Below, one piece after another: positions 46,490 to 64,000 of a stretch of DNA of 64,000 nucleotides. Position 1 is the stretch's first letter, and each line of letters starts with the position of its first letter. This DNA is from Octopus vulgaris (taxonomy: Eukaryota). The position numbers were made by a program, and so were the translations under genes. Under the pieces are notes generated by a model, which had not been told where the DNA came from, did no database searches, and saw nothing but the letters and a program-made list of their open reading frames with translations. The stretch lies in NCBI GenBank assembly GCA_951406725.2, contig OX597816.1, forward strand, positions 121,768,001 to 121,832,000, written 5' to 3'.

Positions 46490-46557
46490 AGGGCATAGAA
46501 TGGCATACACTCGGCCAATACTGTCCAGTGTCTCGCTTCAACCATATTCTCACAGTC
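46490..46557 (-). CDS. WDFY2: WDFY2 coding exon 2 ([22 protein letters not shown])
   Basis: WLKRD.GQYWPS motif; AG/GT bounded, 68 nt; the 11 exons total 1066 nt and join into one open frame. Confidence 0.97.
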
Positions 46558-47589
46558 CTGATGAAATAGGTAAAATAGAGTTAATAGAAAGAAAAGAAGG
46601 GATATAGAAAAGGAGAGAGTAGAGAGACAGAGAATGAAGGAGTAAAGAACAATAAACATACAAATAAAAGAGAGACAAACAAGCTGGAGTAAAGGAGGAA
46701 GATATTGAGACAGTTTGTTTTGCTTACTGTAATAAATTCTGAAAGTGAGAAGTTGCCTATGTTTAATTTCAAATTTGTTCCCATTTAAACTGTAAAATAT
46801 GCTGTTGTTGTTGACCATAGTTTATATAAATAGAGCTCCACCTGAACTGAGAAAAATAGTAGTTATATGGTTACACAACTTGCCAGAAACAGCAACAATC
46901 AAATCTCACTAAAATTATATCTGACCACCTTGAAAAATATAGGGGAGAGAGACACTGGATAATATAACCTATGAAATAGATGGAATAGTCTTCACTCAAA
47001 TGTCTTTCATCATAGGCCTGCTCATCTAAGGTTAAGCATCAACAACAGTATGGTTATACACTAACATTTCATGATTTATCTAAAATTCTTTTCACCTAAC
47101 TTTTGACAATTAAAAAAAATGTTATTTTGTTCAAAGAGAAGTAGCCAAGTCCTATCTCTTGCAGACCTATCAGAGTGGTGGTATTAAGGCAGTTCATTTT
47201 AGTACCCATACTACAATGGAGAAAGCAGTTTATTAGTTAGTAACTTTTACTAAAAGAAAGCAATCATTAAGGGTTAGACTGTCTGGAAAATCTTTATAAA
47301 TTCCACTTTTAATATATTCTTGTCAAAATGTGGATTTTGCAACTTCTTCTATCACTGAATATTTCAAATATATGCTTCAATCACAAATGTTATTCAATGA
47401 GTCATATCATTTTACTGCGGGGCAGTACTTTGTAACATTTGTTTATATATCTGGAAATAAATGTCGCCTAATATTTTCAACACTACTTTCTACAAATTAT
47501 AAGTTTAATTCAGCATCAACCAAATCTTTTCATATTTGTTGGGTGTTGTTGAAGAAATAGAAAACTGAATAATGAAATTGGCTTTAATT

Positions 47590-48722
47590 TACTTATGTCA
47601 ACTGGACATTTTGTCTTCATAACTTTCAGGACAGTAGATATTTTTTAGTGAAAATTTCTACAAAAACTTTTCAGATGTCATAGATTACATCAAAATTTAA
47701 TGTGAAATCTAAATGAGGAGGAGATATTTAATCCATGCATCTCAAATTTATTTTCCTCATACATTTTGATGATTTCATAACAATTATGTTGAAAAAAAAA
47801 TTACTTTTGAGAACTATTCCACCCTTTCCTGAAAATTCTATGAAAGAAATCTTTGTAGAAAGCAGTGTACAATATGAACATTAATTATTGAATACATATT
47901 TCTTTCAGTATTTTACTGCAATCTTAATTTCTCTCTCTTAAACAGTCTGGAAGGTGGTCTATCCCCTACATGGTTGTTTAGTATGGCTAGAAATAGAAGG
48001 GATCACATGTCTCAAAAATAATCTTTATTTTCAACATAACTGTAATTAAATCATCGAAACATTGAGGAAATAAGTTGATATGTGTGAGATATCCACCTTC
48101 CCCAATTATTTTTTTCCACACTAAATTCCTATATAATTATTATCTAAACCATCAAAAAGTTATTTGTAGAAAATTTCACTAAAAAAATTCCCACAAATTC
48201 CAATATAATAGGCACAGGTGTAGCTGTGCAGTAAGAAATTTGATTCTCAACCACATGGTTCCAGATTCAGTCCCACTACGTGACACCTTGGACAAACAAA
48301 AGCCTTGTTAGGGGATTTGGCAGACGGATGCTGAAAGAGGCCAGTCATGTGTGTGTCCCCACCACCACCACCACCACCACCACTTGACAAGTGTTGGTTT
48401 GTTTATGTTCCCATAACTCAGCAGATCAGCTTAGGAGATCAAAAAGATAAGTACCAGGCTTATTTGGGCTGATTTGTTCAACTAAAAATTCTAGGCAGTA
48501 CCCCTAGGATAACCAGTCTACTAATTGACACTAGTGAAAGATAATCATAATCTACCTCATCTGAAGTGTATTTGTAGAAACTTTCATTAATAAATATCCA
48601 TTTTTCAAAAAGTTATGAAGAAGGAAATTTAGTAGGGCACATTTCTGTAGTTATGCCCTAATTTTACTGGTCAAGTAAGTTATTAAACAAAAAAAGAGGA
48701 TTCAAAAGATAATTGGACATAA
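47590..48722. mobile_element. Foldback-like DNA element with long imperfect inverted repeats, interrupted by a SINE
   Basis: About 47640-47812 is the diverged reverse complement of about 48010-48187 (tttagtgaaaatttctacaaa / tttgtagaaaatttcactaaa); further match at 48570-48620. Confidence 0.6.
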
Positions 48723-50084
48723 CAATCAGAAAAATTACACAAACTAAGAATCAAATGTGTAAATTTGATTTAGTAACTAGCAGAAAACTGCCCAGAGAGC
48801 TGTCTTTCTGCTAGTTTTGTAAACTAATTGCTGCTAGTTTTGTCCTGAGAGGAAATGGTGTCACATACAGTTTCAGAAGTGAAACTCAGTAAAGAAACAG
48901 ATGGAATGTGCATTGACTCACTACTTCAGTGGAGTAATGCAATAGCTATGGTAGAAGAAACAGAGGATATAGTAATGCACCATCCCAGATTTGTATGTAA
49001 TATTACACTATGATTTTGAAAAGAGAAGCCTTAGATCTTAAGGAAGGAATTAAGGACAAGTTTAAAAATACATTTGTGGCTGACACGAAGGCTAATAGTT
49101 GCAGATACTGTGAAGTTTTTTGTTTTTTTTTAGTTATGCATCGTTCATGAGTTGAAAGATGGTCATGGTGTTTCCTTGAGTATTTAACAAAGAGGAGAAC
49201 AGAAATATGATGTTAAATGGTCTACCAAGACATCTTAGAAATATTATCTTCCTTGAAATAGGCTAAAAGCTAATACCAAATCTGTGTGGAAAGTTCAGGT
49301 CCTCTGAAGTTGGTGAAATTGATGTAAGAAGGTCGGCTGAAAAGTTCATAGGCTGCATAAGATACTTTTATGGAATGTGACTAAATGAGGTTTACTTTTT
49401 AAAATAGTCCCCCTTGTAGTCCACACACTTCTCCTACTGGTTATGCCATGCTTGGATCCTATTGGTGAAGGAACTTTCATCCTGTCACTCAAAAATGTCA
49501 TCAGCACTGTTACAGGGACGTAAACACACCAACACTGGTCACCAAGCAGTGATGGGGGACAAACATAGACACAACACACACAAAGTGCTTCTTTCAGTTT
49601 CTCTCAACTAAATCCACTCATAAGGCTTTGGTCGGCCTGAGGCTATAGTAGAAGACACTTGCCCAAAGTGCCACACAGTAGGACTGAACCCAGAACCATG
49701 TAGTTGGGAAGCAAGTTTGTTATCACATAGCCACAGAAGAAAGAACTTACAAGTAAGAGAAGGTTTCAATAAAGAAATTAATTGTAAGAAACAGGAACTA
49801 CAACTTATTTAATACAAAGTCAGTCCTGATTTGTCAAATGTATCACATGAACCAGTTTCTCTCTTCCTTTTCTTTTTCTCCCTAAAGACAACACAACGTA
49901 TCAAGAACTACATTATCCAATGTATTTTTCCATTTTTGAAACAGCACATTGAAATTTTAGGAAGATTTGGTATCTATTTCTAGCAAAACTTATAGATTTC
50001 CTTCTTTAGTTCATAGGACCAACAGTACATGAAGAACATTTTAAAGACTAGTATGTTATTCTGCATTCATTCTGTTATACAAGA

Positions 50085-51195
50085 CATAAGACAAAGCTAA
50101 GGAAAATGCTACAGACACAGTAAAAACAGAGAAAGTGGTTCTTCTACCCACTTATTTGGGAAGAAGGACTTCAAGAATTAGGGTGGAGGGAATTCCACTG
50201 GAAATTGACGTGGCTTGGATCTTGGCAGCTGTTCTTCTGGGAAGTGAGGAAGAAGTAGCTGTCCTCCAAGCCACAAAGAAGGAAGGCTCGGTTTGGAAAG
50301 GAAAAACAATGGATCTGATTGTACAGGCTGCAGTAGAGACACTCGAAAATTTAGTGGAGATAGTATCAGAGATATGGTGCTGAAAGTGTGGGTGGAGGGC
50401 AGGACTCCTCCCTGCTTTAAATGTGGCCCAAAAGGCCACATTAGAGCACACTGCCCTCTGCAAATGCAGGCCCTGGAAAGGATGGACAAGAGGCTGGAAA
50501 AGAAGCAAGAGGAGGAAAAGGAAAGAAAGGAAGAATGGAAAATTGCAGAAGGAAGGCAGAAAAAAGGAGAAACGAACAGTGTTATGTGGAACCCCACCTC
50601 ACCATTACTCTCTGAGACCCCCCTCCCCTACAGATACCGAACCCACCCATCCCCTCCTATACAATCCAAAAAGAAATAAGAAATGCAATCACAACAAAGT
50701 ACAAAGTATTCCCTTCCCCGTGAAGTAAATTATGTTTGTATACTGACAGACAACGAGAATAAGGAACTAATTTGGAAAGTAACAGGTTGGAAGACAGCAA
50801 AAATGGTTTATACAGAAGGATATAATAACACAATAAGGTGGCACATGTGTGTGCTGCTTTCAGAAAAGCAGATAGGAGAGGTGAAAAATTACAAAAAAAG
50901 TTTTAAGTTTTGGAAGATCAATACGGACATTAAAAGGATACCGGACAACATAAGGTATGAGAAACTATTGGTGAAATTTGGTGTTGATGTGGTAAAAAGA
51001 CTTCCAAGGAAGTAAGTGATGCTGCTTGAGGTGGGGAAAGCAGCACATTTCCATTTTCTCAATCTCGTTATTCATTCATACTATCATATTTATAACTTTA
51101 TTTGAATTTTATTTTAATTATTTTGTGTTATATGTCCCCACATGTGTTTGTGTTGTCCCCTCTTTGTTAGGCCCCTTGTGGGAAATAAAGAAATA
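50085..51195 (+). mobile_element. ORF1-only (gag-like CCHC) retroposon, 5'-truncated copy 1
   Basis: VVLLPTYLGRRTSRIRVEGIP, VWVEGRTPPCFKCGPKGHIRAHCP, stop at 51015, about 180-nt 3' UTR ending gccccttgtgggaaataaagaaa; no RT. Confidence 0.75.
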
Positions 51196-51199
51196 ATGG

Positions 51200-52892
51200 T
51201 TTCTTCAATGTTTGTATATTTATACTTTGCTTTTTGTACTGGTGTTTTATTCTTTTGAACATGTTGTGCTGCTTTGCAGCAGTTTGTTTGTGGTTTGTTT
51301 GTGCTTTCTCTTCTCGTGAAAGGAGAGGTAGCTTAGTAAAAACATATCTGTAGAAGATTATAGCTTCTCAGACATATTGTCGCTGGAAGAGGAATTGTTG
51401 GAGGCGGTTTGGTAGATGGACAATCAATTGAAGAAGGGGAAGAGGAATTTTGCCAATGTGGCAAAATGCCAGGAGAAGGAAATGGATATCGGAAAATTTG
51501 GAAGGTATAAAGATTTAGTAAGTTGGGATGGTTTTGAGGTGAAGCTGTCCCCCACCACAAGTGACACATAATAACAATAAGGAAACAATAATGTACTGAA
51601 TCTTTTCAATAAGTAAAGGAAAAATTGACATTGTGACTACGGACCAGGTGGAAAAGGCTATGAGACCGATATGGAGCGATATTGTGTACCTCGCAAGAGG
51701 TTTGATGTTTGGAGTAGTGGTGGTGAGGTCCAAGGACATAGCAACAGCAAGGAAACAAGAAGCGACATCCATCAAGAGTGAAGAAGTGGTGTTTCTGCCC
51801 ACTTACCGAGGATTAAGAGCAACAAGAATCAGTGTAGAAGGAATTCCGCCAGCGAGACAGATGTGGCCCGGGTAGCAAACACTGTCTTTCTTGGAAACAA
51901 GGACAACATAGTGGTTATCCAGGCCAGAAAAAAGGAAAGCATGATATGGAAGGGACAAACACTGAACCTGATTGTTCAAGGATCAACCAAGACTCTGGAA
52001 AATATCAGAGTCAATAATTATGGATGATGTGATAATGACGGTCCAGGTGGAGGGCAGAGTCCCCAGCTGCTTTAAATGTGACCCAAAGGACCACATTAGA
52101 GTGGATTGCCCTTCATAGACCAAAAAAGCAGAGGAGAAGTGACTGAAGAATATGGAGGAGCAAAAGGAAGAGAGGTTGGAGAGTTCCAGAAAAGAGGACG
52201 GAGTAGTAGCAATGGAGGACAAGTGGGAAAAAGTCACTGAAAGAAAGAGAAAGCAAGTGTTTTGAACTCTAAACCTCAACCCACACCCTCTCAGACCCAC
52301 CCTCCCCCACAGACACGAAGCCTACTCATTCCTCTCCGACACAAAAACAAAAGAAAAAGAAAACAAGTACACACAAAACCCCTCAAACTCCCTCCAGCCA
52401 GACAGAAAAGAAAAAATGTATTGTAATAATGTATGATGATTCAAATGAGGAATTATGTAAGGAGGTAATGACATGGGAAGAGTGTAAAAAATGGAAACAG
52501 AGGGGTATGACAATGTTAAGAGGTGGAACCAATGTGTGGTATCCACAGAGGAATAAAAGGTGAGGTTGACAAGGCATGAAAGTGGATATGATTGGTGGGA
52601 TGTGGAACTTGATTGGAACAAACTACCAGACCTTTTAACATATGAAAAATTGTTGGAAAAGCATGGTGTAGACATTTTTGAAGGTTCAAGGTATAAGAGA
52701 TGTTAGAAGGCAGAAATGGAGTTGCTCAGAGGTGGGGCTGAGTAGTTTCATTGCATTTTCTCATTTTCATTATCATCATGTTCTCATATGTTGATTTGAT
52801 TTTTTGACCTTTTCTTTCTCTTTTTGTTTTGTGTCCCCATATGTTATGTATTGTCCCGGCTGTGTTAGCCCCTTATGTGCAATAAAGAAACA
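51200..52892 (+). mobile_element. ORF1-only (gag-like CCHC) retroposon, copy 2
   Basis: VVFLPTYRGLRATRISVEGIPP, VQVEGRVPSCFKCDPKDHIRVDCP, same 3' UTR ending gccccttatgtgcaataaagaaa; no RT. Confidence 0.75.
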
Positions 52893-52959
52893 ATGGTTTC
52901 TTTCAAGGTTTGAAGAGAAGTCTTTAACTTAGTTTTTAATGAAATGACGATATAGAAAA

Positions 52960-55280
52960 CAAATGAAAACAAGAGTATTTTGTCTTTGGACGAATCCGAT
53001 ACTGATATTAGTGAATATTCGTTGGACGAGGAGGATATTGAGAACAAAAGTGATAAAAATGGTATGACAACATTGTCAAAGACTACAACACCAATTACTA
53101 TTCCTGATTTTACAGAAAACACTGGTCCACAACACAATTTACCTCTTGATGCTCAACCATTGGACTACTTATTTTTATTTTTACCAGAAAGTTTTTTTTG
53201 AAAATGTTATGGAGGAAACAAACAACTATGCACAATGTATAATTTCTATTCATGGAAGAAACAATCCACTATGTCAGCCAATTTATACTGTGTAAATGAG
53301 AGCGTTTTTCACAATATTACGTTTGGTGTTAAACAGCTTCCTCAACCGTGGAACTACTGGAGTCCTGATAGATATCTCAAGTATAAGACAAGGTATTCGA
53401 AAATATCTCAGTATTTACATTTAATTGATTCTGTTAATGCCCCCAGCAAAAATGACCCACACTACAATCCCTTGTACAAAGTATGTCCTGTAATTGATTT
53501 ACTCCTTAATAGTTATAAAACTGTGTATGTACCTGAGAAAAATCTCAGTGTAGATGAAGCCATGATAGTCTATAAGGGCAGAGTACATTTTTGGCAGTAC
53601 ATGCCTGCCAAAGCCACTAAACGAGGGATCAAGGTATGGGAGGTTTGTGAATCAGACACTGGATATTGCATAAACTTTGATGTTTACACAGGTAAAAAAT
53701 ATAATGGGAACAGACCATATGGATTGGGACATGATGTAGTACGGTCTCTTACTGAACCATTTCACCATCAGCACTGACACTGCTAGTTTGAATGTTATTT
53801 TTTCTTCACTGGCTTTGGCAGAAAATCTTGCCCATGTAAGTACTTACATGTGCAGTACTGTTATGGGCAGCTGTAAAGGTTTACCCCGTGAAATGAAAAC
53901 AAAATTTATAAAAAAGAGGGGTCATTTTACAAATGCAAAAGGAAAATTTATTAGTTACTGCTTTCAAACACAAAAGACAGATTTTATTTCTGTCTACTAA
54001 TGAACAACTTGGTATTGGTGCTGAGGAGAAATCCCTAGTGAATAGTTATAACAAATATATGGGTGGGGTTAATAAATCTGACCAATATTGAGCACATTAC
54101 CCTGTTGGTCAACCTGGGAAGAAATCATGGAGGTATATTTTATAGTTTTTTTAGTTAATTTAATTACAGTTAATTCATATATTGTATATGTAAAAAGCCA
54201 CAAGGTACCTCCACCACCAAAGGACTATGACCATTTGAAATTTCGGTTGACATTGATTCCCAGTTATGTGAGGGCTTTTCTTCTAGAAAGCACACAACTG
54301 GGAGAAAAGCAAAATTAACTGAAGTGTGTGTCAAGGAGAAAATATTGACTTTTATAAAGTCAAAAAGATAAATGGTAAAGAAACAGTTTGGAGACTGTGT
54401 TCGCTGCTAAAAAGAAAAACTGCAAAAGGGTATCAGATCAAGACTTCGTATATGTGTTTCTTTTGCAAAGTGCTTTTGTGTAAAAGGTGCTTGGGCAGTT
54501 TCATGACAGAAATATGTCATAACTATATTATTTTATCATATATTCCTTTTCATTTTATTATAAATATGTGAAAGTGAGAAATACATAATAATTTTCAATA
54601 TGTTACACACCTGTATTCACCTTTATCTCACCTGTTAATGAGCTTTTTTTATTAGATGCATTCTGTTATGTAATTGAATTCATTAAATTGTATAAGAGTA
54701 CATAGCCAATGGTGTATTGACTAGTAAAAGAGTTTTGTACTTCATTTTCAATGAAATACAGAGAAAGAATAAAATCTTGTACCAGTTACACCTGTATTTT
54801 AATTAATTCAAATTTAAAAAAAGCTCATTAACAGGTGAGACAAAGGTGGATACAGGTGTGTAACATACTGAAAATTAATATGTATTTCTCACTTACACAT
54901 ATTATCTTGAAAAATGTAAAATTGTTTCCATTATATTTTTTAAATGTGTAAACATCAAATAATTTTAGTAACAAATGAAACAGGTAAGATATATTAAGAA
55001 TATGAATTTTAGTATTTATTCCTAATATTGTTTTTACACCTGTAAATTAAATTTACCTGCCCATAGAAGTCAAATTTAATTAGAAAGATCAGCTAAAATT
55101 ATGTAACTATAAACCACTGGCATATAAGTACCCATTTACAAAATTTCAAATCTGTATGTAGAAAATTAACAAGTTACAAGCAAATATTGTGGAAACCCCA
55201 CTTAAACCTGAATAAATCAAACTTAATGTGAACAGATAAGCCTTACATTTGACAAATTCATCTGAACACTAAAGGGTTAA
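52960..55280 (+). mobile_element. Decayed piggyBac transposon (PGBD4-like transposase) with right end
   Basis: Acidic N-terminus, LSVDEAMIVYKGR...QYMPAK.TKRGIKVW, YNKYMGGV.K.DQ, C-terminal Cys-rich domain; ends aaaggg-TTAA at 55271-55280; left TIR not found. Confidence 0.92.
54563..54903. repeat. 88-bp inverted repeat inside the piggyBac 3' region
   Basis: 54563-54650 versus 54816-54903, 5 mismatches, 165-bp spacer. Confidence 0.92.
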
Positions 55281-56589
55281 AGCTTCTGTAGACTCCTGTT
55301 TTACAGCTTTGTAAATCAAATCAAAGAAGAACAAAGTATTTTGCTGAGGACCACATTGAAATGCTAGTGATGCATTTGAATTGAGGATCCATGAGAAGAC
55401 AGCCCCAAAACTAAGCAGTTTTGAACTGTTGCCTCTATCAGTGGAAATCTAGATATAACAGTATTTTACTAGGCAAAATACCAATCAGTCACTTGTTGAA
55501 AATCTGATTTTTTTTAAAAATGTAAACAAGTTAGAAAGAGAAGTTACTCATCAGACTAGAAGTAATATTGATTATGCTTAATGTACGGAGGTCATGCTCT
55601 GTATCTATCTTAATTAATTGGTCTGGATGGCTTTAACGTTATTGAGCCATTGCAGCAATGTTAAGTCATAAGATAACATCAGAGAGAGAGTGAGACAGAT
55701 TATCATTAATATTATCAAACATTCACAAATGGCATACAGATGAGATAGAGCCCCCACAACTGAACTTAGGCACAAATTTCACCGATTTGTTTTCTTTCGT
55801 AATCAATAAATCACATTTAATCTGTTGAAATAATTAACCATAGAAATGCTTCTTTGCCAAGAATAATTATTGCTTCTTAAATACTAAAATACACATTTTC
55901 AAAATGATACTGAGTTTAAAGGAAGCCCTGTGTAGCACTGTCTGTTGTTGATTCAATCAAGTTTCCTCTTGAGAGTAAAGGAGTATATGTTACTCATTAT
56001 CATATACTAACTTAACTGTAATAACCTTGATAGTTTAGATGATGATGATGATGAGAAATTTCTAATATAGAGGTAAGGCCACATATTTGGAGAGATGTGT
56101 ATAGTTAGTTAAATTAATCCAATGTGCTGGACTGGTACTTATTTCATCAATGACAGAAAAATGAAAAGCAAAGCTGATCTTAATGAGATTCAGATTCCAA
56201 ATATCCTTATTCATCTCTCCATATAGAAGATAACTATGACATCACTATTGGATTGGTTGGGGAGTGATTACAAATCAATATGTAGGCAGCCCAAAACATT
56301 CTCAGTATCCTCAACTCATTTACTCCTAGCTTGCTTAGAAGTTACACTGCAATATGAGGTTGTGCTAGATAAATATCTCAAAAGTAAGATTCTCCCAGGA
56401 TTCTGGATTGACCTTGAAGTCTTTTAGGGATACCTCAAGAATACTCTACACACCAAGTGAATGTTTCCTCACTTACCAAAAACAAAAAGAGTTTCCGCAG
56501 TTCTGGCATTGTGGTCAGGCAGTGCATGCTTCATGATTGAGAAACCTGTGTTTGAGATGTTGTCCTGCCAATTAATGTACAGCATTCTA

Positions 56590-56820
56590 ATTTCTTTATT
56601 GCCCACAAGGGGCTAAACATAGAGGGGACAAACACGGACAGACAAAGGGATTTAGTTGATTACATAGACCCCAGTGCGTAACTGGTACTTAATTTATCAA
56701 CCCCAAAAGGATGAAAGGCAAAGTCGACCTTGGCGGAATTTGAACTTAGAATGTAACGGTAGACGAAATACCGCTAAGCATTTCGCACAGCCTGCTAATG
56801 TTTCTGCCAGCTCACAGTCT
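56590..56820 (-). mobile_element. tRNA-headed SINE (type A tail) with 15-bp TSD
   Basis: TSD aatgtacagcattct at 56574-56588 and 56828-56842. Confidence 0.9.
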
Positions 56821-57547
56821 TTCACAGAATGTACAGCATTCTGTGAAAGCAGTTCAGTTGGAATCTTAAGCTCATTCTGTCTAATACAGCTGAATTTACC
56901 AAACCATTACTCTCCATAACAATCATTTTCATCCCAGCACTGAGAGTTTATATTTTTTAGAGCATGGAGTCAATAAGGACTATCTTCTCTTTAAAGAATG
57001 ATCAAAGATATTTTATAAATATGCTTTCTTTCATTTTCCCTTTCACTGTCACAAATATAGGTAAGAGTATCAATGTCACTCATGGAGGAAATTGCTTTTT
57101 TATGAAATTATAACAGCCAAGCTGACAACAAGGTGAAAGATATCTACAGAAGTTCAAATTGTCGACTACAAGTTTCTTTCTCCATGTAAAGAGCAGACTG
57201 TATGAGGCAAAGATTGTTTATCTTAAACAGCTCAATGTTATATGATCACATAACATGAATAAAAACAGAAAATTTTTTTAAAAATGAGGAGCAGCAAACT
57301 GAGTTTGCTGCAGAATAATTGACAAGAATAGCTGAGTACAAGTGAATTGCAAAAGTAGTTAATGCATATATGACAAAGCAGACAATTATGCTAGTAGGGA
57401 TATATAACACAAATGGACAAGTACTAATGAGAGTAGGGGGATAAATAAATAAAATATTAAGTATTTTAAGGAAACAGTTGAAGCTATGTTAACCTTAGCA
57501 AAAGTGGATCATGAGAATTTTGGGAGAAGAACTAAGATCATTATTAA

Positions 57548-57768
57548 CCCTTTCGTTACCGTATTTATTTTGAGATGCTTTGTTTTTCTCTCAATTATTT
57601 TAAATATAACAAAGAATTTAGTAAAATAACTTAGCTATCATTAAGCTAGTGTTAGGAATATAAATTGCAACTAATGTTTGGTGGTATATTTTGATGCAAA
57701 ACTTATGAAAACAAGACATTTGTACTACAGAGCCAGAGCCAGTTTTGGCCGGGTTAGTAACGAAAGGG
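57548..57768. mobile_element. piggyBac-type MITE
   Basis: TTAA-ccctttcgttac ... gtaacgaaaggg-TTAA; perfect 12-bp TIR and TTAA duplication. Confidence 0.9.
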
Positions 57769-58108
57769 TTAAGAATATTTGATGTCAGAGATGACAATAT
57801 GCATGCTTTGAAAACCTATCATATGGGCATGACTGTATGATAAGGAGCTTGCTTCCCAACCTCATGATTCTGGATTCAGTCTGTGTGGCACCTTGAGCAA
57901 GTGCCTTCTACTATAGACCAGGCCAACCAAAGCCTTGTGAGTGGATTTGGTAGACAGAAACTGAAAGAAGTCCATGGTCGGTGTGTGTGTTCCTTATGCA
58001 TTCAGAAACTGAGTTGCCAATTTTGGCATATGGGGTATCTAAAAATTCAATAATCTTTCTGCTACCAAATAAACTTTATTTTCGTTTACATATTTTCTAT
58101 GTTTTCTC

Positions 58109-58462
58109 AACAACCTGCTATAGTTACTTGAAAGACACTGCTCTACATCGACCAGGTTTCATTAGAAAGTGAAAATAGTTTCACACTTTCAATTTGAACC
58201 AAAATTACGTGACGATGTGTGAATAATGAAAGTAATGTTTCTCTGAATTAGTTACATCCGTACTATAATAATCAAAAACAACCTGCTATACTTACTTGAA
58301 AGACACTGCACTACAACAGACAAGTTTCATTAGAAAGTGAAAATAGTTTCACATTTTCAATTTGAACCAAAATTACTAAGTTTCGCATTACAAGAGTGAC
58401 GATGTGTGAATAATGAAAGTAATGTTTCTCTGAATTAGTTACATCCGTACTGTAATAAACAA
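58109..58462 (+). repeat. Tandem duplication of about 168 bp; second copy has a 19-bp insertion
   Basis: acaacctgctata...gttacatccgtact.taataa repeated at about 58110 and 58278. Confidence 0.85.
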
Positions 58463-60296
58463 AGCTGCTTTAACATCTATCTATATACACAAAAGCTACC
58501 AAATAAACTGTTTTTGGCACAACACATTTTTAATGCTAAAAGAGGTCGGGTCGCACAATTTTGAGGTCACTTTCAGGCAATATTTTGATTTGCTTCTAAT
58601 GTTTCACTTTCATCCGATGTTTCACACATGTATTGAATTCTACTCTGACAAACATTATGAAAATGTACATGTAAATATTGTATTAAAATAAACCAAAACC
58701 AAAAAACTTTCATTAAAAGACATCCATTTCTCTAGGTGTTATGAGGAAATAGTCACTCACTCATACATACAAAACAGATGTATGCATATATATTTATGTA
58801 CATGTATATGAAAGATAATGTGTGTGTGTGTGTGTGAGATAGATCAGGAGAGAGAGAGAGAGCAAGCGAGTGCCACTTACACATACATGCAAAAAGATAA
58901 AATACATACAACACAAACTTTCACTCTCTCTATCTCTCTCTCACACACACATCCATCCATTTCATATACACGTACATACATCTTTCACTTTCTGACCTCA
59001 CTTCAAAGCAAATGCTGCCTTTTCACTTCCTCCTCTCTTCAAATCATAAAGAAAGAAAAATTTTTTTACAGAAATTAACGAACAGTAATATGATCTCATA
59101 TAATCGGGATAAAAACTCTACTGCTTCAAATGAAAGAATGCCATAAAATAACTTCTTTTGGCATACACACACACACTAGGTAAAACTTTTGTATGAATTA
59201 TGTTATTTCTTGCTGTGTGCACATGCAAAATTACAGCTCAAATCCAATTAAAATAACCTTTATCCATTCTGTAATTTGTGTTTGTGATGAGCATATTTAA
59301 AAACCTGATCTTTAATATAAACTTAAAAGGAAGTTTTCCCAGAAATCCTGTCCATTACCTGTTGTTTCTAGCATGTCCGAGGTGACATTTGTGCCCCACC
59401 ACTTATTTTTTTCCTGAATTTCTTCCAATTCCTGTTTTCTATACAAGAAATTAGGATTTCACTCGAACAACACGTTCTCAATATTTAAATTTTCTCCTTC
59501 TCTTCCCCAATATCTTCATTTTTTTTTTTCCAAATTTTTTTTCTTGGTAATCCACAGAAAGTATAAATCTTTGAGAATATTCTTCTTCCTTTCTTCTTAA
59601 AAGAAACACTAAAATCTCTTTTCTAAACATCAACCCATCACCTCACCACTTTCAGAAAGCTACAAACTACCACTGTTTCACTTTAATCTATCTGGAAATT
59701 GGGGAAGTTTCTTCAGAAATAATGTTTACCTGTTGTTTCTAACATGCCGGATTTACTGGTGGTGGTCTGGTATTTCAGAACAATTCTACGCATGTGTGAA
59801 ACATCAGATGAAAGTGAAACATTGGGAGGTTTTAGCTTTTTGAAAGCAGGTGATGGGTGGGCAGTGTGGGGGAAGGGGCATTAAGTAATTTCCCAGATTC
59901 GTAATCTCTGTATTTTTCTAGGTCGTTAAAAAAGAATTCGAAAAATGTTACAAATTAAGAAATTTCGATAGGGACAGGGGAAAATTAAAATTTAAAAAAT
60001 GTGATTTCTGGGCAAAATTGTATTAACCCCCTTTTATACGATGAAACAATACATAGTTTGTGATCCTTCTTAAGAACAGAAAGCACTTTCATGCAAACCC
60101 ATGCAAATAGTACCCTTGCCCAATTCACTTTTAAACAAACAATAACTTCCATTACACCAGTAATCCAGTTCACTATATATCAGCTGTGCTGATTCTGCCC
60201 ATAAGAAAGGAACAAATAATAAAATGTGGCTGTAGGTCATAACATCTGGCCAATGCTGGGATGCATCACTAGTATGTATGTATGTATGTATCTCTA

Positions 60297-60360
<64 letters not shown>

Positions 60361-60379
60361 GAAATATGTTACCAAAAGA

Positions 60380-61290
60380 AAATAGAAACTACACGTAGAA
60401 ATGTAAGGGGAAAGTAAGAAGAAAAATAATCGAAAATGCACATTGGAAATCAAAAAAAGTAAAGGCTTTTTATGAAAAGTAACGAAAGATATATACAAGT
60501 AGATGAACCGAGGTAGGAATAAAAGTAATTACAGTCATTATTGTGAATTGTTAAAGAGATTCAAAAGCATACCGGTTTCGTAAAATTACTGATCACTGCT
60601 TTGAATGCACACCGATTAGCAAACGTTGTCGGGTCTACTAGTCTCTGAGTAAAAAGATTATGTGTAAGGGACGTAAGTAGTTCTTGATTTGGGGCAATTA
60701 GGGTAGATATAGATCTGTAATGTGAATGGTGTATGGGATGTATGGGGATTAGTGGTATTAATTGAAAGGTTAGTAGTGTTCTGTATTAAGCTATGTGTTC
60801 ATATTCAGTTGTGGAAGATATTTATTGATGAAAGTTGCCTCTTTATTCATTCTTTGTTGTACAGAGGTGTTCTGTGAACATTGATAGAAGGGGAAAATTA
60901 GGAAATTAGGATTAAGGCTCCTAGCACACCTTTCTATGTGTTCACTGACCTGTATCTGTCTGTAATGTAGGTGACAGATTTCTTCTTTGTAGAGAGTGGT
61001 TCTTCAAGGGAATGATATTCCTATTTGGCCAATATAATGATTACTACACCCTACGCATGTAATGGCAAAGATTAGATTTTCTGAAGCACTAGTGAAATTT
61101 GATATAATCTAAAATATTTCACCTTGTTTAAATCACAGGTGATCTAAATGACTAAGATTAGATTTTCTGAAGCACTAGTGAAATTTGATATAATCTTAAA
61201 TATTTCACCTTGTTTAAATCACAGGTGATCTAAATGACTAAGTATGCTGGGTAAGTGTTGTAACGGATTACCAGGGCTTCAAGTTTAAAG
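60380..61290 (-). mobile_element. Penelope-like element 3' fragment: GIY-YIG domain plus 3' UTR/pLTR
   Basis: ASENLIFAITCVGCSNHYIGQIG...YRQIQVSEHIERCA...FLIFPFYQC....RMNKEATFINKYLPQLN, stop at 60793-60791; 86-bp tandem duplication 61068-61239. Confidence 0.88.
60559..60606 (-). ncRNA. Minimal type I hammerhead ribozyme, G3-C8 core variant
   Basis: AUUCAAAGCA GUGAUCA GUA-auuu-UAC GAAA CCGG UA UGCUUUUGAAU; lies about 185 nt downstream of the PLE stop codon. Confidence 0.82.
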
Positions 61291-61425
61291 TCAAGACAGG
61301 AGTTATGGAACCATTTTAGATTTCCAATATAGCAGATATATAATTGTTAAAGAGGACAACAAATGTTAAGGCAAGTCAAAAATCTCAAGTGATATACATT
61401 ATTATTATTATTGGAAAAATTCAAA

Positions 61426-61481
61426 GTCTTACAGCTGTTTCTGGGATATCCCAGAGTATGGAATATTCTGTCATTAGAGAC
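61426..61481 (-). ncRNA. Minimal type I hammerhead ribozyme motif, mutated, in a probable second PLE terminal fragment
   Basis: GUCU CUAAUGA CAGAAUAUUCC-auacucu-GGGAUAUCCCA GAAA CAGCUG UA AGAC; palindromic stem III; G5 changed to A. Confidence 0.78.
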
Positions 61482-63287
61482 AAATAGGGAAAATGAGAAG
61501 AGTATAGATTAATGAAATGACAACATAAAGGACAGAAAAAAAGGAATGTGATGAAGAAAGAGAAAAAAGAAGCATAAAAGTTCACAGTTCAACTATCTAA
61601 TCATGTAGATGTTAGTCCATAAGTCCTTAGGTGCAATCCTGCATAAATCCGTGTAGGTTATAGTCATAATAGTGTAAATATCTAGAAGTGGATGCGAACG
61701 TACACACACACGTGTATAGGTATGTTTGTTTGTGTCCCCACAACTACCACTTGACAATTGGTGTTGCTTTGTGTCCCTGTAACTAATAGGTTCAGCAAAA
61801 GAGATCAGGGATTACAAAAAATAAATAAATAAAATTACATAATGATAATAATAATAAGTAAAGAGGCCGAGTCATTCAACTTAAATCCTTCAAGGTGGTA
61901 CCCCAGCATGGCCACAGCCCAATGACTGAAATGAGTAGAAGATAAAAGATAATCTATGAAGTAGATAAATACAAATGGCAATGATGATAAAATAGAGAGC
62001 GGAAAATTAAAAGTAGTTGAAATACCATCCAACAAAAGTAATTAACACATTTGAAAATTACTGCAATTATGCAGGTCAGGGTAATTTGATTACGTACATG
62101 CATATATGTGAGTAGTGACATATATGAGAGGAAGACATAACCAGTGAGCCAAACACATAAAACAACATTGTTTAATAATTTAGTGACCTCCACTGTTAAT
62201 TTAAAATTGTGTGACATAATTTTACAAATACCATTTAAGGACAATGAAGATATACAAGCTGATGATGATGATGATAATGATGAAAGTAAAAATAATGAAT
62301 TTATTTGCCTGCTGGACAGAAAGGTAAAAGACATTACAAACAGATATATGAGACTATATAAAGTATAGAGTGTGCTATGAATAACAATAAGATAGACAAC
62401 TATATGAGTCACCTTGTTCTTCCACCAACACCACCTCTAATGATGTCATTGATAAGTAAAGTGATTCTAATGTCAAAACAACTGGTCAGCTGTCATCTTG
62501 AAAATAATATGCTGATCAACAGTCTTATTAAATGTTTTGTTTAGTAAGCAGGACATTGAGATTAGGCTTAAACCACTCACTGCCATTCAATCAAGTCATG
62601 AAGCAGATAAAATACAACCAATTGTTAAACTCCAACAATGTATTAACATATGACTAACTGTGAAGTAGATAAAAATATGTAATATGGGAAATAGCTACTT
62701 CCTGAAATATTAATCTCATTGAAATATTCCAAAAAGTTTATAAGTTTTTTTTTTTTGTTGTTTTTTTTGCTTTTTCTTGTGAGTATGCACTGAATTGTTA
62801 AAAATTGTAGGCCATAGTTTTAGGCATCTGACAGTGTTAACTGTGAATGAGACTGACAACTAATATTAAGCATAACTCAACACTAGTAACAAATGCTTGA
62901 AATGATCCATCCTCCCAGCTCCAGAAATGTCTGGGTTGAAAACCTTTGACAATAGATCTGCTTGGCCATGGGCTTCAACAACAACTATTCAAATTAATAT
63001 TACACTGTTGTTCAACTTGTTAAAGATAGCACCCAAATCACCCTCAAATAACACCCTACTGTATTAAAAAAGAGAAAAGACATGAGGAATAATATATCTC
63101 CAGATAAACAGAACAGAAGCACAATCACTGTTTCATATCAAGGAAATAATCATGTACTTCAAGTTCTTGTTTGGGATACCATACAATTAAAACCCTCACA
63201 GTTGTTCTCTTCACAGCCTTTAAACACCTCAGTTATGATCAACTACTACCCTCAACAAAGCTTACCAAAAGCCATCAGAAGGGTACA

Positions 63288-63650
63288 ATTTCCACGTCAG
63301 GAGGGTATGTTTTGATTGTCGTTAGTTTGTCCATCTATGTGCAAAATAACTCAGAAAGTTGTGAACGGTATTCAATGAAACTTGCAGGAAAAGTTGGTAA
63401 TGACACAAGGAACTGATGATGAAATTTTGGTAGTGATCCAGGAATTTTTATGGATTCTTGAAGGATTTTTCATTTGTTATATTTACTTTACATGAAGTAT
63501 TGTTACGTACTTTGATTATCTCCCTTGAAAACACTTCAGCTCCATGTAACCTATGGTGGTGTTGCTGTTTCCAAAGTTTATTTTTGTTTCTCTATTAGTA
63601 ATTTTACTTGCGTATCTATCTTAAAATGAGCTGCTTGGCAGAGGTCTGCA
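63288..63650 (+). mobile_element. Helentron-associated (HINE/DINE-like) non-autonomous element, tentative
   Basis: 5' ccacgtcaggagggtatgtttt...aaaataactcagaaagtt...aatgaaactt and 3' cttggcagaggtctgc resemble HINE subterminal repeats. Confidence 0.5.
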
Positions 63651-64000
63651 GAGGATGACATGACAAGCCTTGACTATTGGGATCGACTCAAAAAGCTCAG
63701 GCTTTGCTCCCTCCACTGCCGCTGTGAGCTCTATTTCATCTGTATGATGTGGAAAATATTCCATCAACATTGCTCATCTTTAAAATTTGTCCAAGGCTTG
63801 GGCCCCGTGCCATCTGTCCACTATAGAAATGTTCATGTCATATCACAACACTATGACAGAACTATTTCACCTCAATTGGCCCTGTTCTCTTCAACATCGT
63901 GCCAGACACACATAAGGGAGGAAAGTGACTTCACAGCATTCAAACGATCCCTAGATGATTACCCCCAACAAATACCAGATAAACCATCCACACTCAGATA
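63651..64000 (+). mobile_element. CR1/L2-group LINE ORF2 C-terminal fragment
   Basis: LDYWDRLKKLRLCSLH.R.E.Y....MWKI ... FTSIGPVLFNIVP ... FKRSLDDY..QIPDKP. Confidence 0.8.

Follow-up and report, generated by a model that had tools for sequence, protein, structure and literature searches.

Anatomy and Detection of the Motif

The minus strand of the window (the whole analyzed stretch of octopus DNA, 64,000 nucleotides long) carries a hammerhead-like motif with G at core position 3 and C at core position 8, and the question raised by this locus is whether such an exchange represents a natural compensatory change in a Penelope-like element or a mark of decay. The preliminary description favored the former, and every element that it listed for the motif is present:

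60559..60606, minus strand: minimal type I hammerhead motif with a flipped G3-C8 core pair (based on sequence, family copies and structure scan)
60597..60606, minus strand: 5' arm of stem I (sequence; its pairs covary across sister families)
60590..60596, minus strand: core strand G3-U4-G5-A6-U7-C8-A9, with G3 at 60596 and C8 at 60591
60580..60589, minus strand: stem II, 3 bp from G10.1-C11.1, with a 4-nt loop (sequence and sister families)
60576..60579, minus strand: core strand G12-A13-A14-A15.1 (GAAA; sequence)
60571..60576, minus strand: self-complementary ACCGGU, predicted to form a 6-bp stem III between two copies
60570..60572, minus strand: GUA triplet with A17 at 60570; predicted cut 3' of A17, between 60570 and 60569
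60559..60569, minus strand: 3' arm of stem I with one bulged U

The helices form a three-way junction of the type I order, in which stem I comprises 10 bp and one bulged U (arms of 10 and 11 nt), stem II comprises 3 bp, and stem III exists only as a 6-bp helix of a dimer. The literal core CUGANGA (C3, G8) is absent, G3 and C8 being present instead; the motif does have a Watson–Crick 3–8 pair, which is the structural rule behind the core letters. U4, G5, A6, A9, G12, A13, A14, A15.1-U16.1 and the NUH triplet are all in place and represent the majority state in the copies picked by homology. The prediction of a cut 3' of A17 is based on the NUH rule for the cleavage triplet (PMC8495972).

According to the preliminary description, standard searches would overlook such a motif, and a structure search tolerating G3-C8 was proposed instead. 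An Rfam scan of the motif indeed returned no hammerhead match, even at E ≤ 10, and a structure scan permitting any letters at positions 3 and 8 identified a single site across all 64 kb, and 100 locally shuffled versions of the window yielded none. The lone monomer folds weakly and not as a hammerhead (MFE = −6.4 kcal/mol, z = −0.53), and the predicted energy of the hammerhead shape is −20.5 kcal/mol for the dimer versus −0.1 kcal/mol for the monomer. The best co-fold of the dimer (−22.3 kcal/mol) retains stems I and III and re-pairs stem II, being 1.8 kcal/mol better than the hammerhead dimer. When loop–loop contacts were checked, stem I was found to have one bulge or mismatch, and loop II differed between families. 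The motif likely works like a minimal hammerhead of the dimer type.

The Insertion and the Host Gene

The motif is part of a truncated element located in an intron of a host gene:

60320..61218, minus strand: 5'-truncated Penelope-like (Neptune-like) insertion, consisting of an endonuclease remnant and a 3' repeat
60791..61066, minus strand: broken GIY-YIG endonuclease remnant with an open piece at 60791–61003 (70 aa)
60315..60357, no strand assigned: (TA)n microsatellite at the 3' end of the element
46545..64000, minus strand: first coding intron of a WD40-FYVE (WDFY1/2-like) host gene, continuing ~26 kb past the window

The insertion has diverged from its own subfamily by 6.2%, and its 5' end contains a tandem duplication of ~88 nt within 61066–61243 (minus strand), in which 61147–61218 repeats the start. 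The motif had been described as lying just downstream of a GIY-YIG ORF; this is correct as to position, since it lies ~190 nt 3' of the endonuclease's stop codon, but the ORF is a broken remnant whose open 70-aa piece had no match in Pfam. Translations of longer family copies contain a reverse transcriptase (RT), a CxxC linker and then a C-terminal GIY-YIG endonuclease with CCHH, and in an intact 784-aa ORF of a sister family, RVT_1 scored 34.1 bits (cut-off 29.6) and GIY-YIG scored 22.4 bits, just under the cut-off of 22.6. The CX2-5CxxC linker and the endonuclease CCHH, both of the Neptune type, are visible in the family translations, and the element is called Neptune-like on the basis of these motifs rather than of a tree with named Neptune references. 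A 784-codon open RT–endonuclease frame lies at L263:961–3312 (plus strand) in a young U3-A8 family, with an inverted copy of the repeat at its 5' side.

The terminal repeats of the family are found in truncated copies and in head-to-head inverted pairs starting at stem I, and the four long F1 copies checked had no visible 5' repeat on the same strand. Loci L092, L106, L008, L009 and L010 are inverted pairs of the terminal repeat. Since many truncated copies begin within ~15 nt of stem I, the 5' boundary of the repeat is placed just before the motif.

Exons of the WDFY type are found at 10.7–46.6 kb of the minus strand, and the first coding exon is located ~26.6 kb beyond the window end, so the expectation that the motif is sense to a WDFY gene with exon 1 outside the window proved correct. 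The first coding intron is ~44 kb long, as estimated from the exons in the window and L379:6603. The gene is presumably of the WDFY type, a name based on its WD40-FYVE motifs. Sense orientation within this intron, together with the lack of differences from the subfamily inside the motif (0/48) compared with 41/665 outside it, might suggest that the copy at 60559–60606 was co-opted to cut or regulate the host pre-mRNA. Such co-option is extremely improbable: a copy is likelier to be noticed when intact, which most likely explains the 0/48; neither the window nor the 30 kb that follow it yielded a second sense motif with which a dimer could form; and the hammerhead fold of the monomer is predicted to be unstable. 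Cutting of the host pre-mRNA is thus unlikely, and the copy is regarded as a lone, neutrally ageing relic.

State of Positions 3 and 8 in the Family

The homology search yielded 1,187 candidates, 40 of which were scored; among the 30 best loci, A3-U8 was found in 22, G3-C8 in five (including the copy under study) and other combinations in three. When core positions 3–9 and half of stem II were left open, 81 family copies were listed and tallied by hand, comprising 57 with A3-U8, 19 with G3-C8, two with G-U and one each with A-C, A-G and U-C, i.e., a Watson–Crick pair was present in 76 copies and C3-G8 in none. In a set of 102 distinct copies, which was deliberately enriched for rarer subfamilies, A-U was present in 59, G-C in 34 and other combinations in nine, again with no C3-G8. 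Consequently, the possibility raised earlier that G3-C8 is fixed in the family had to be abandoned, because this pair marks the older subfamilies and the majority carry A3-U8, a second flipped pair. Nor is G3-C8 private to the copy under study, as seen from its frequency of 19/81. Neither of the sequence patterns that the preliminary description had named as arguments against its own reading was observed: C3-G8 was absent from both sets (0/81 and 0/102), and the two positions change together.

The divergence of G3-C8 copies was 5.6–5.7% versus 3.6–4.3% for A3-U8 copies, and CpGs at −35, −24 and −13 are retained by the former and gone from the latter. The DNA tree, constructed from 30 long homology-trimmed rows (1,691 columns, with columns 3 and 8 excluded), had the form of a ladder of G3-C8 sister families, then G3-C8 subfamilies and then one A3-U8 clade (87/92, not starred), whose branch of 0.003 corresponds to about five other changes in 1,691 columns (1.7 kb). 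The chance of so few changes hitting both sides of the pair was ~1 × 10−5 to 3 × 10−4, and ≤4 × 10−3 for any of 14 pairs, values that were computed after the fact for a single G-C to A-U event and depend on the assumptions made. In contigs of four public runs (organisms B to E), A3 accounted for 81–90% and U8 for 77–89% of the depth, which indicates that the family is common to related organisms.

In 27 copies found by homology, per-copy decay was 2.7% in the core, 2.9% in the rest of the motif, and 3.9% and 1.9% in the flanks, so raised conservation of the core was not seen in these genomic copies. Because the core decays as fast as its surroundings in the copies, selection would have acted on the source elements only. 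The preliminary argument for selection rather than decay can thus be kept for the source elements, but not for the copy at 60559–60606 itself.

Genome-Wide Census of Core Pairs

The census was based on exact pattern matches with stem III ACCGGU and the other core letters fixed, and reverse patterns served as controls. The pyrimidine-3/purine-8 order was found 5,816 times (control 7), mostly as UUGAAAA among the 100 matches listed, and the purine-3/pyrimidine-8 order ~1,400 times (148 + 1,236 + 19; controls 0, 6 and 7). The latter included 117 G3-C8 motifs (control 2), and most of the others among the matches listed were A3-U8. Purine–purine (111, control 9) and pyrimidine–pyrimidine combinations (53, control 9) together numbered 164; they look like single decays of recognizable families, and no purine–purine or pyrimidine–pyrimidine family was present among the matches listed (100 of the 111 and all 53, respectively). 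The textbook C3-G8 core with ACCGGU occurred 111 times (control 1), nearly all of those listed belonging to one ~360-bp tandem repeat. With other 4-nt stem III centers, flipped cores did not exceed background (85 versus 293 in the control), and the pyrimidine–purine order was found 2,666 times (control 145). U3-A8 was the dominant hammerhead core genome-wide among the matches listed for the two pyrimidine–purine searches (5,816 and 2,666).

Several other groups of motifs were observed in the course of the census. Tandem ~360-bp repeats with a hammerhead in each unit (L217–L223 at C1:20.00 Mb and L279–L282 at C1:8.13 Mb) carry either CUGACGA/ACCGGU or UUGAAAA/ACGCGU, often in head-to-head blocks, and look like non-LTR retrozymes. 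Beside U3-A8 relatives, there is also a family seen repeatedly with the wobble U3-G8 (UUGACGA, stem III ACUAGU; L284, L285 and others), possibly a fixed intermediate between C-G and U-A. Near-identical G3-C8 copies of family F3 are clustered on C17 at 67–69 Mb and 79 Mb, probably carried by segmental duplications, and A3-U8 copies at C10:2.4–2.9 Mb are clustered much like them.

The flipped motifs form about seven families, and an endonuclease was located upstream in some sampled copies of F1, F2, F3, F4, F5 and F6; none was seen upstream of the two F7 copies. Stem I covaries among the families (2.1-1.1 as A-U/C-G, 2.2-1.2 as C-G/U-A, 2.3-1.3 as G-C/U-A/A-U); F2 and some copies of subfamily "a" have a mismatch in this stem, C-A or C-C. 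Stem II is weak in some families, being reduced to G10.1-C11.1 followed by a C-A mismatch in F3/F4 and to 2 bp in subfamily "e". Position N17, which was left open in the pattern, is A or C and hardly ever G across the flipped families.

As the patterns fix the other core letters, copies were also picked by upstream homology alone, with the motif excluded from the query (20 of the best 40 copies in each of three families, top-scoring and non-self; only one of the duplicated C17 copies was used for F3). These sets contained A-U in 19/20, G-C in 14/20 (G3 in 20/20) and A-U in 18/20 copies, the third including one row without the rest of the motif, and C-G was found in 0/60. The 3–8 pair was Watson–Crick in 51 of these 60 copies of other families, U4, G5, A6 and A9 were the majority letters in all three families, and the rest of the core was unchanged across families with a DNA identity of 70–86%.

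Phylogenetic Analysis and Independent Flips

The protein tree included five metagenome- or bin-derived outgroups, four with C3-G8 and one with U3-A8; a distance filter was applied, and the endonuclease upstream of L141 is that of a neighboring element. A U3-A8 family was basal in the host clade (100/100), and it was followed by three clades of unresolved order, namely, U3-A8, A3-U8, and G3-C8 with nested A3-U8. The protein trees do not separate subfamilies, and the support of 67/43 neither shows nor rejects a single origin of the two flipped clades. Considered together, the protein trees and the DNA tree require that positions 3 and 8 both changed on three or more occasions within the host clade, with a Watson–Crick pair as the outcome every time. 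Since the basal host families carry U3-A8, a direct swap from C3-G8 to G3-C8 is improbable, and the route to G3-C8 probably did not lead directly from C3-G8.

Flipped pairs were also found outside the host clade. In one metagenome contig, an A3-U8 motif lies behind a Penelope-like ORF (L331:1969–1999), and in another, a G3-C8 motif lies just ahead of an open 810-codon frame (L338:117–150); these are unrelated Penelope-like elements (protein identity 28–30%) with stems II of 6–7 bp. Under a looser filter, the sense matches in 91 outside loci comprised 17 C-G, three U-A, one A-U and one G-C, repeat copies being counted, and 60 shuffles of these loci gave no flipped matches. Animal-type Penelope elements were observed in contigs filed under bacterial bins (e.g., L366–L370), several from shellfish symbionts, and are likely host contamination.

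It might be supposed that the motif died early and that the letters at positions 3 and 8 drifted in a few master lineages, their complementarity being a coincidence amplified by copy number. The copies are not independent, few events took place at the level of lineages, the transitions G to A and C to U are frequent, and the decay of the genomic copies reported above is neutral, all of which would fit such drift. It is nevertheless very unlikely and already largely refuted, because the joint changes of positions 3 and 8 within the host clade, three or more in number, all end in Watson–Crick pairs, one flip needing two transversions; the listed census matches include no family with two purines or two pyrimidines; the rest of the core is constant between families as divergent as noted above; and L331 and L338 represent two further independent flips.

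Proposed Mechanism and Significance

The anatomy of the motif, its position behind an endonuclease gene, the family counts, the joint change of positions 3 and 8, and the covarying stem I were observed directly. The reading that we consider probable is a minimal hammerhead of a Penelope-like terminal repeat with a flipped 3–8 pair, G-C in older and A-U in younger families, whose source RNA was likely cut after GUA when two repeats were paired. Because positions 3 and 8 change together between families, the ~1,400 flipped motifs are likely working or once-working RNAs, predicted to cut themselves, that standard searches miss. The occurrence of the pair in all four Watson–Crick forms points to selection on source elements for an active fold, probably as dimers. 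Selection on transposing source elements would have kept the pair Watson–Crick because the active fold depends on the pairing and on the 2'-OH of residue 8 and not on which bases are present. In a tandem transcript, two repeat copies would be joined by the 6-bp ACCGGU stem III and by exchanged stem I arms, and the paired dimer would be cut after N17. Such cutting would be slow, may require the element's own protein, and would release unit-length element RNA from read-through transcripts. Przybilski and Hammann reportedly found in 2007 that any Watson–Crick pair is tolerated in one natural hammerhead, whereas the pyrimidine–purine order is preferred in another.

Positions 3 and 8 pair in the catalytically active conformation of the hammerhead (PMC3884650), the 2'-OH of residue 8 acts as the acid in cleavage (PMC6155905), and weak cutting of dimers has been shown for other minimal Penelope hammerheads (PMC4209133). 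The preliminary description also stated a partial rescue by the G3-C8 double swap, which agrees with the published data on engineered C3G/G8C, including that of the anole Penelope hammerhead (PMC11167929; PMC9901934; also PMC8495972). Rescue was limited to the G-C swap in one deep mutational scan, where other changes at 3–8, including A-U, stayed low (PMC9901934); the anole hammerhead was cut only when the element protein was present, mutating it left insertion in vitro unimpaired, and read ends were absent from the cut site (PMC11167929). These data, along with stems II of only 1–2 bp in several flipped families, would suit the rather unlikely alternative that the hammerhead fold with its 3–8 pair was kept to serve the RT–endonuclease protein as a binding or folding element, self-cleavage being marginal or lost in flipped lineages. 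However, the pair is part of the active conformation cited above, U4, G5, A6 and A9 prevail in the three homology-picked families, N17 is hardly ever G, and natural hammerheads with single-pair stems II exist (PMC3088659).

A further proposal is that A3 was favored because A3-U4-G5 (or G3-U4-G5) is a start codon, position 8 following to keep the fold. The flip does create AUG or GUG at positions 3–5, and the ORF of the anole element begins inside its own hammerhead (PMC11167929). Yet for every flipped family, most copies have frames from position 3 that close after ~4–18 codons, and the first ORF of a complete outgroup element has its first methionine >100 nt downstream of the motif, making this proposal highly improbable. 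A start-codon role of position 3 was rejected, as only short frames were opened.

The flipped motifs offer natural, phylogenetically ordered support for a flipped 3–8 tertiary pair, which is otherwise known to us only from laboratory mutants, and they show that elements could continue to transpose with either C or U as the general-acid residue. The search rule widens to any Watson–Crick 3–8 pair, which gives ~1,400 extra motifs here with one stem III alone, and the four pairs, available as matched natural sets within a single scaffold, could be used for testing whether Penelope hammerheads must cut. A broader view, which we hold only tentatively and with some doubt, takes the 3–8 pair of natural hammerheads to be fully interchangeable: one lineage would have passed from C-G to U-A, then to A-U and G-C, and then to A-U again across thousands of sites, and unrelated Penelope lineages would have flipped independently. 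Interchangeability combined with independent flips would make active purine-3/pyrimidine-8 ribozymes a widespread class invisible to CUGANGA/UUGANAA searches, and conservation of the pair would testify, at the level of lineages, to the importance of self-cleavage for Penelope transposition. In that case, some elements scored as ribozyme-less may carry flipped hammerheads.

Comparison with Known Systems

Minimal type I hammerheads of metazoan Penelope-like elements were reportedly treated by Lunse et al. in 2017. Such motifs have been described in the pseudo-LTRs of these elements (Cervera and De la Pena 2014, PMC4209133), and the octopus motif resembles them in its location in a terminal repeat downstream of an ORF with RT and GIY-YIG, a mini stem III that is palindromic, the G10.1-C11.1 pair, an apparent lack of a recognizable loop–loop contact, dispersed copies that are truncated or inverted, and a predicted requirement for a dimer. 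Unlike them, it has a purine at position 3 and a pyrimidine at position 8: the 56 representative motifs in Fig. S3 of that article comprise 53 C3-G8, two U3-A8 and one U3-G8, with no purine at position 3. Stem II is also shorter, with 1–3 bp in the flipped octopus families versus 5–8 bp in most of those motifs.

Hammerheads in Penelope repeats and natural U3-A8 pairs have thus been published already (PMC4209133; PMC3088659; PMC6765202), the latter by Perreault et al. 2011 (PMC3088659) and for Schistosoma Cercyon elements (PMC4209133). U3-A8, too, represents compensation within this tertiary pair in nature, but it keeps the pyrimidine–purine order, whereas the octopus forms invert it, and both inverted pairs are present. 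In the literature searched, the supplements of which may list such variants, only engineered mutants and natural U3-A8 were reported, and neither natural G3-C8 nor natural A3-U8; the accessible text of PMC10085705, PMC7229834, PMC2920678 and a 2026 preprint mentions no natural flipped pair.

The element resembles the Neptune clade (Craig et al. 2021, PMC8557442) in its RT, CX2-5CxxC linker, C-terminal GIY-YIG with CCHH, and insertion adjacent to a microsatellite; in that study, the core strings cuganga/gaaa were searched, relaxed descriptors having added no motifs. The G3-C8 pair is identical to that of engineered C3G/G8C in the anole PAc element (PMC11167929) and elsewhere (PMC9901934; PMC8495972), but those are laboratory mutants, whereas here entire transposed families carry the flipped pair, A3-U8 more commonly than G3-C8.
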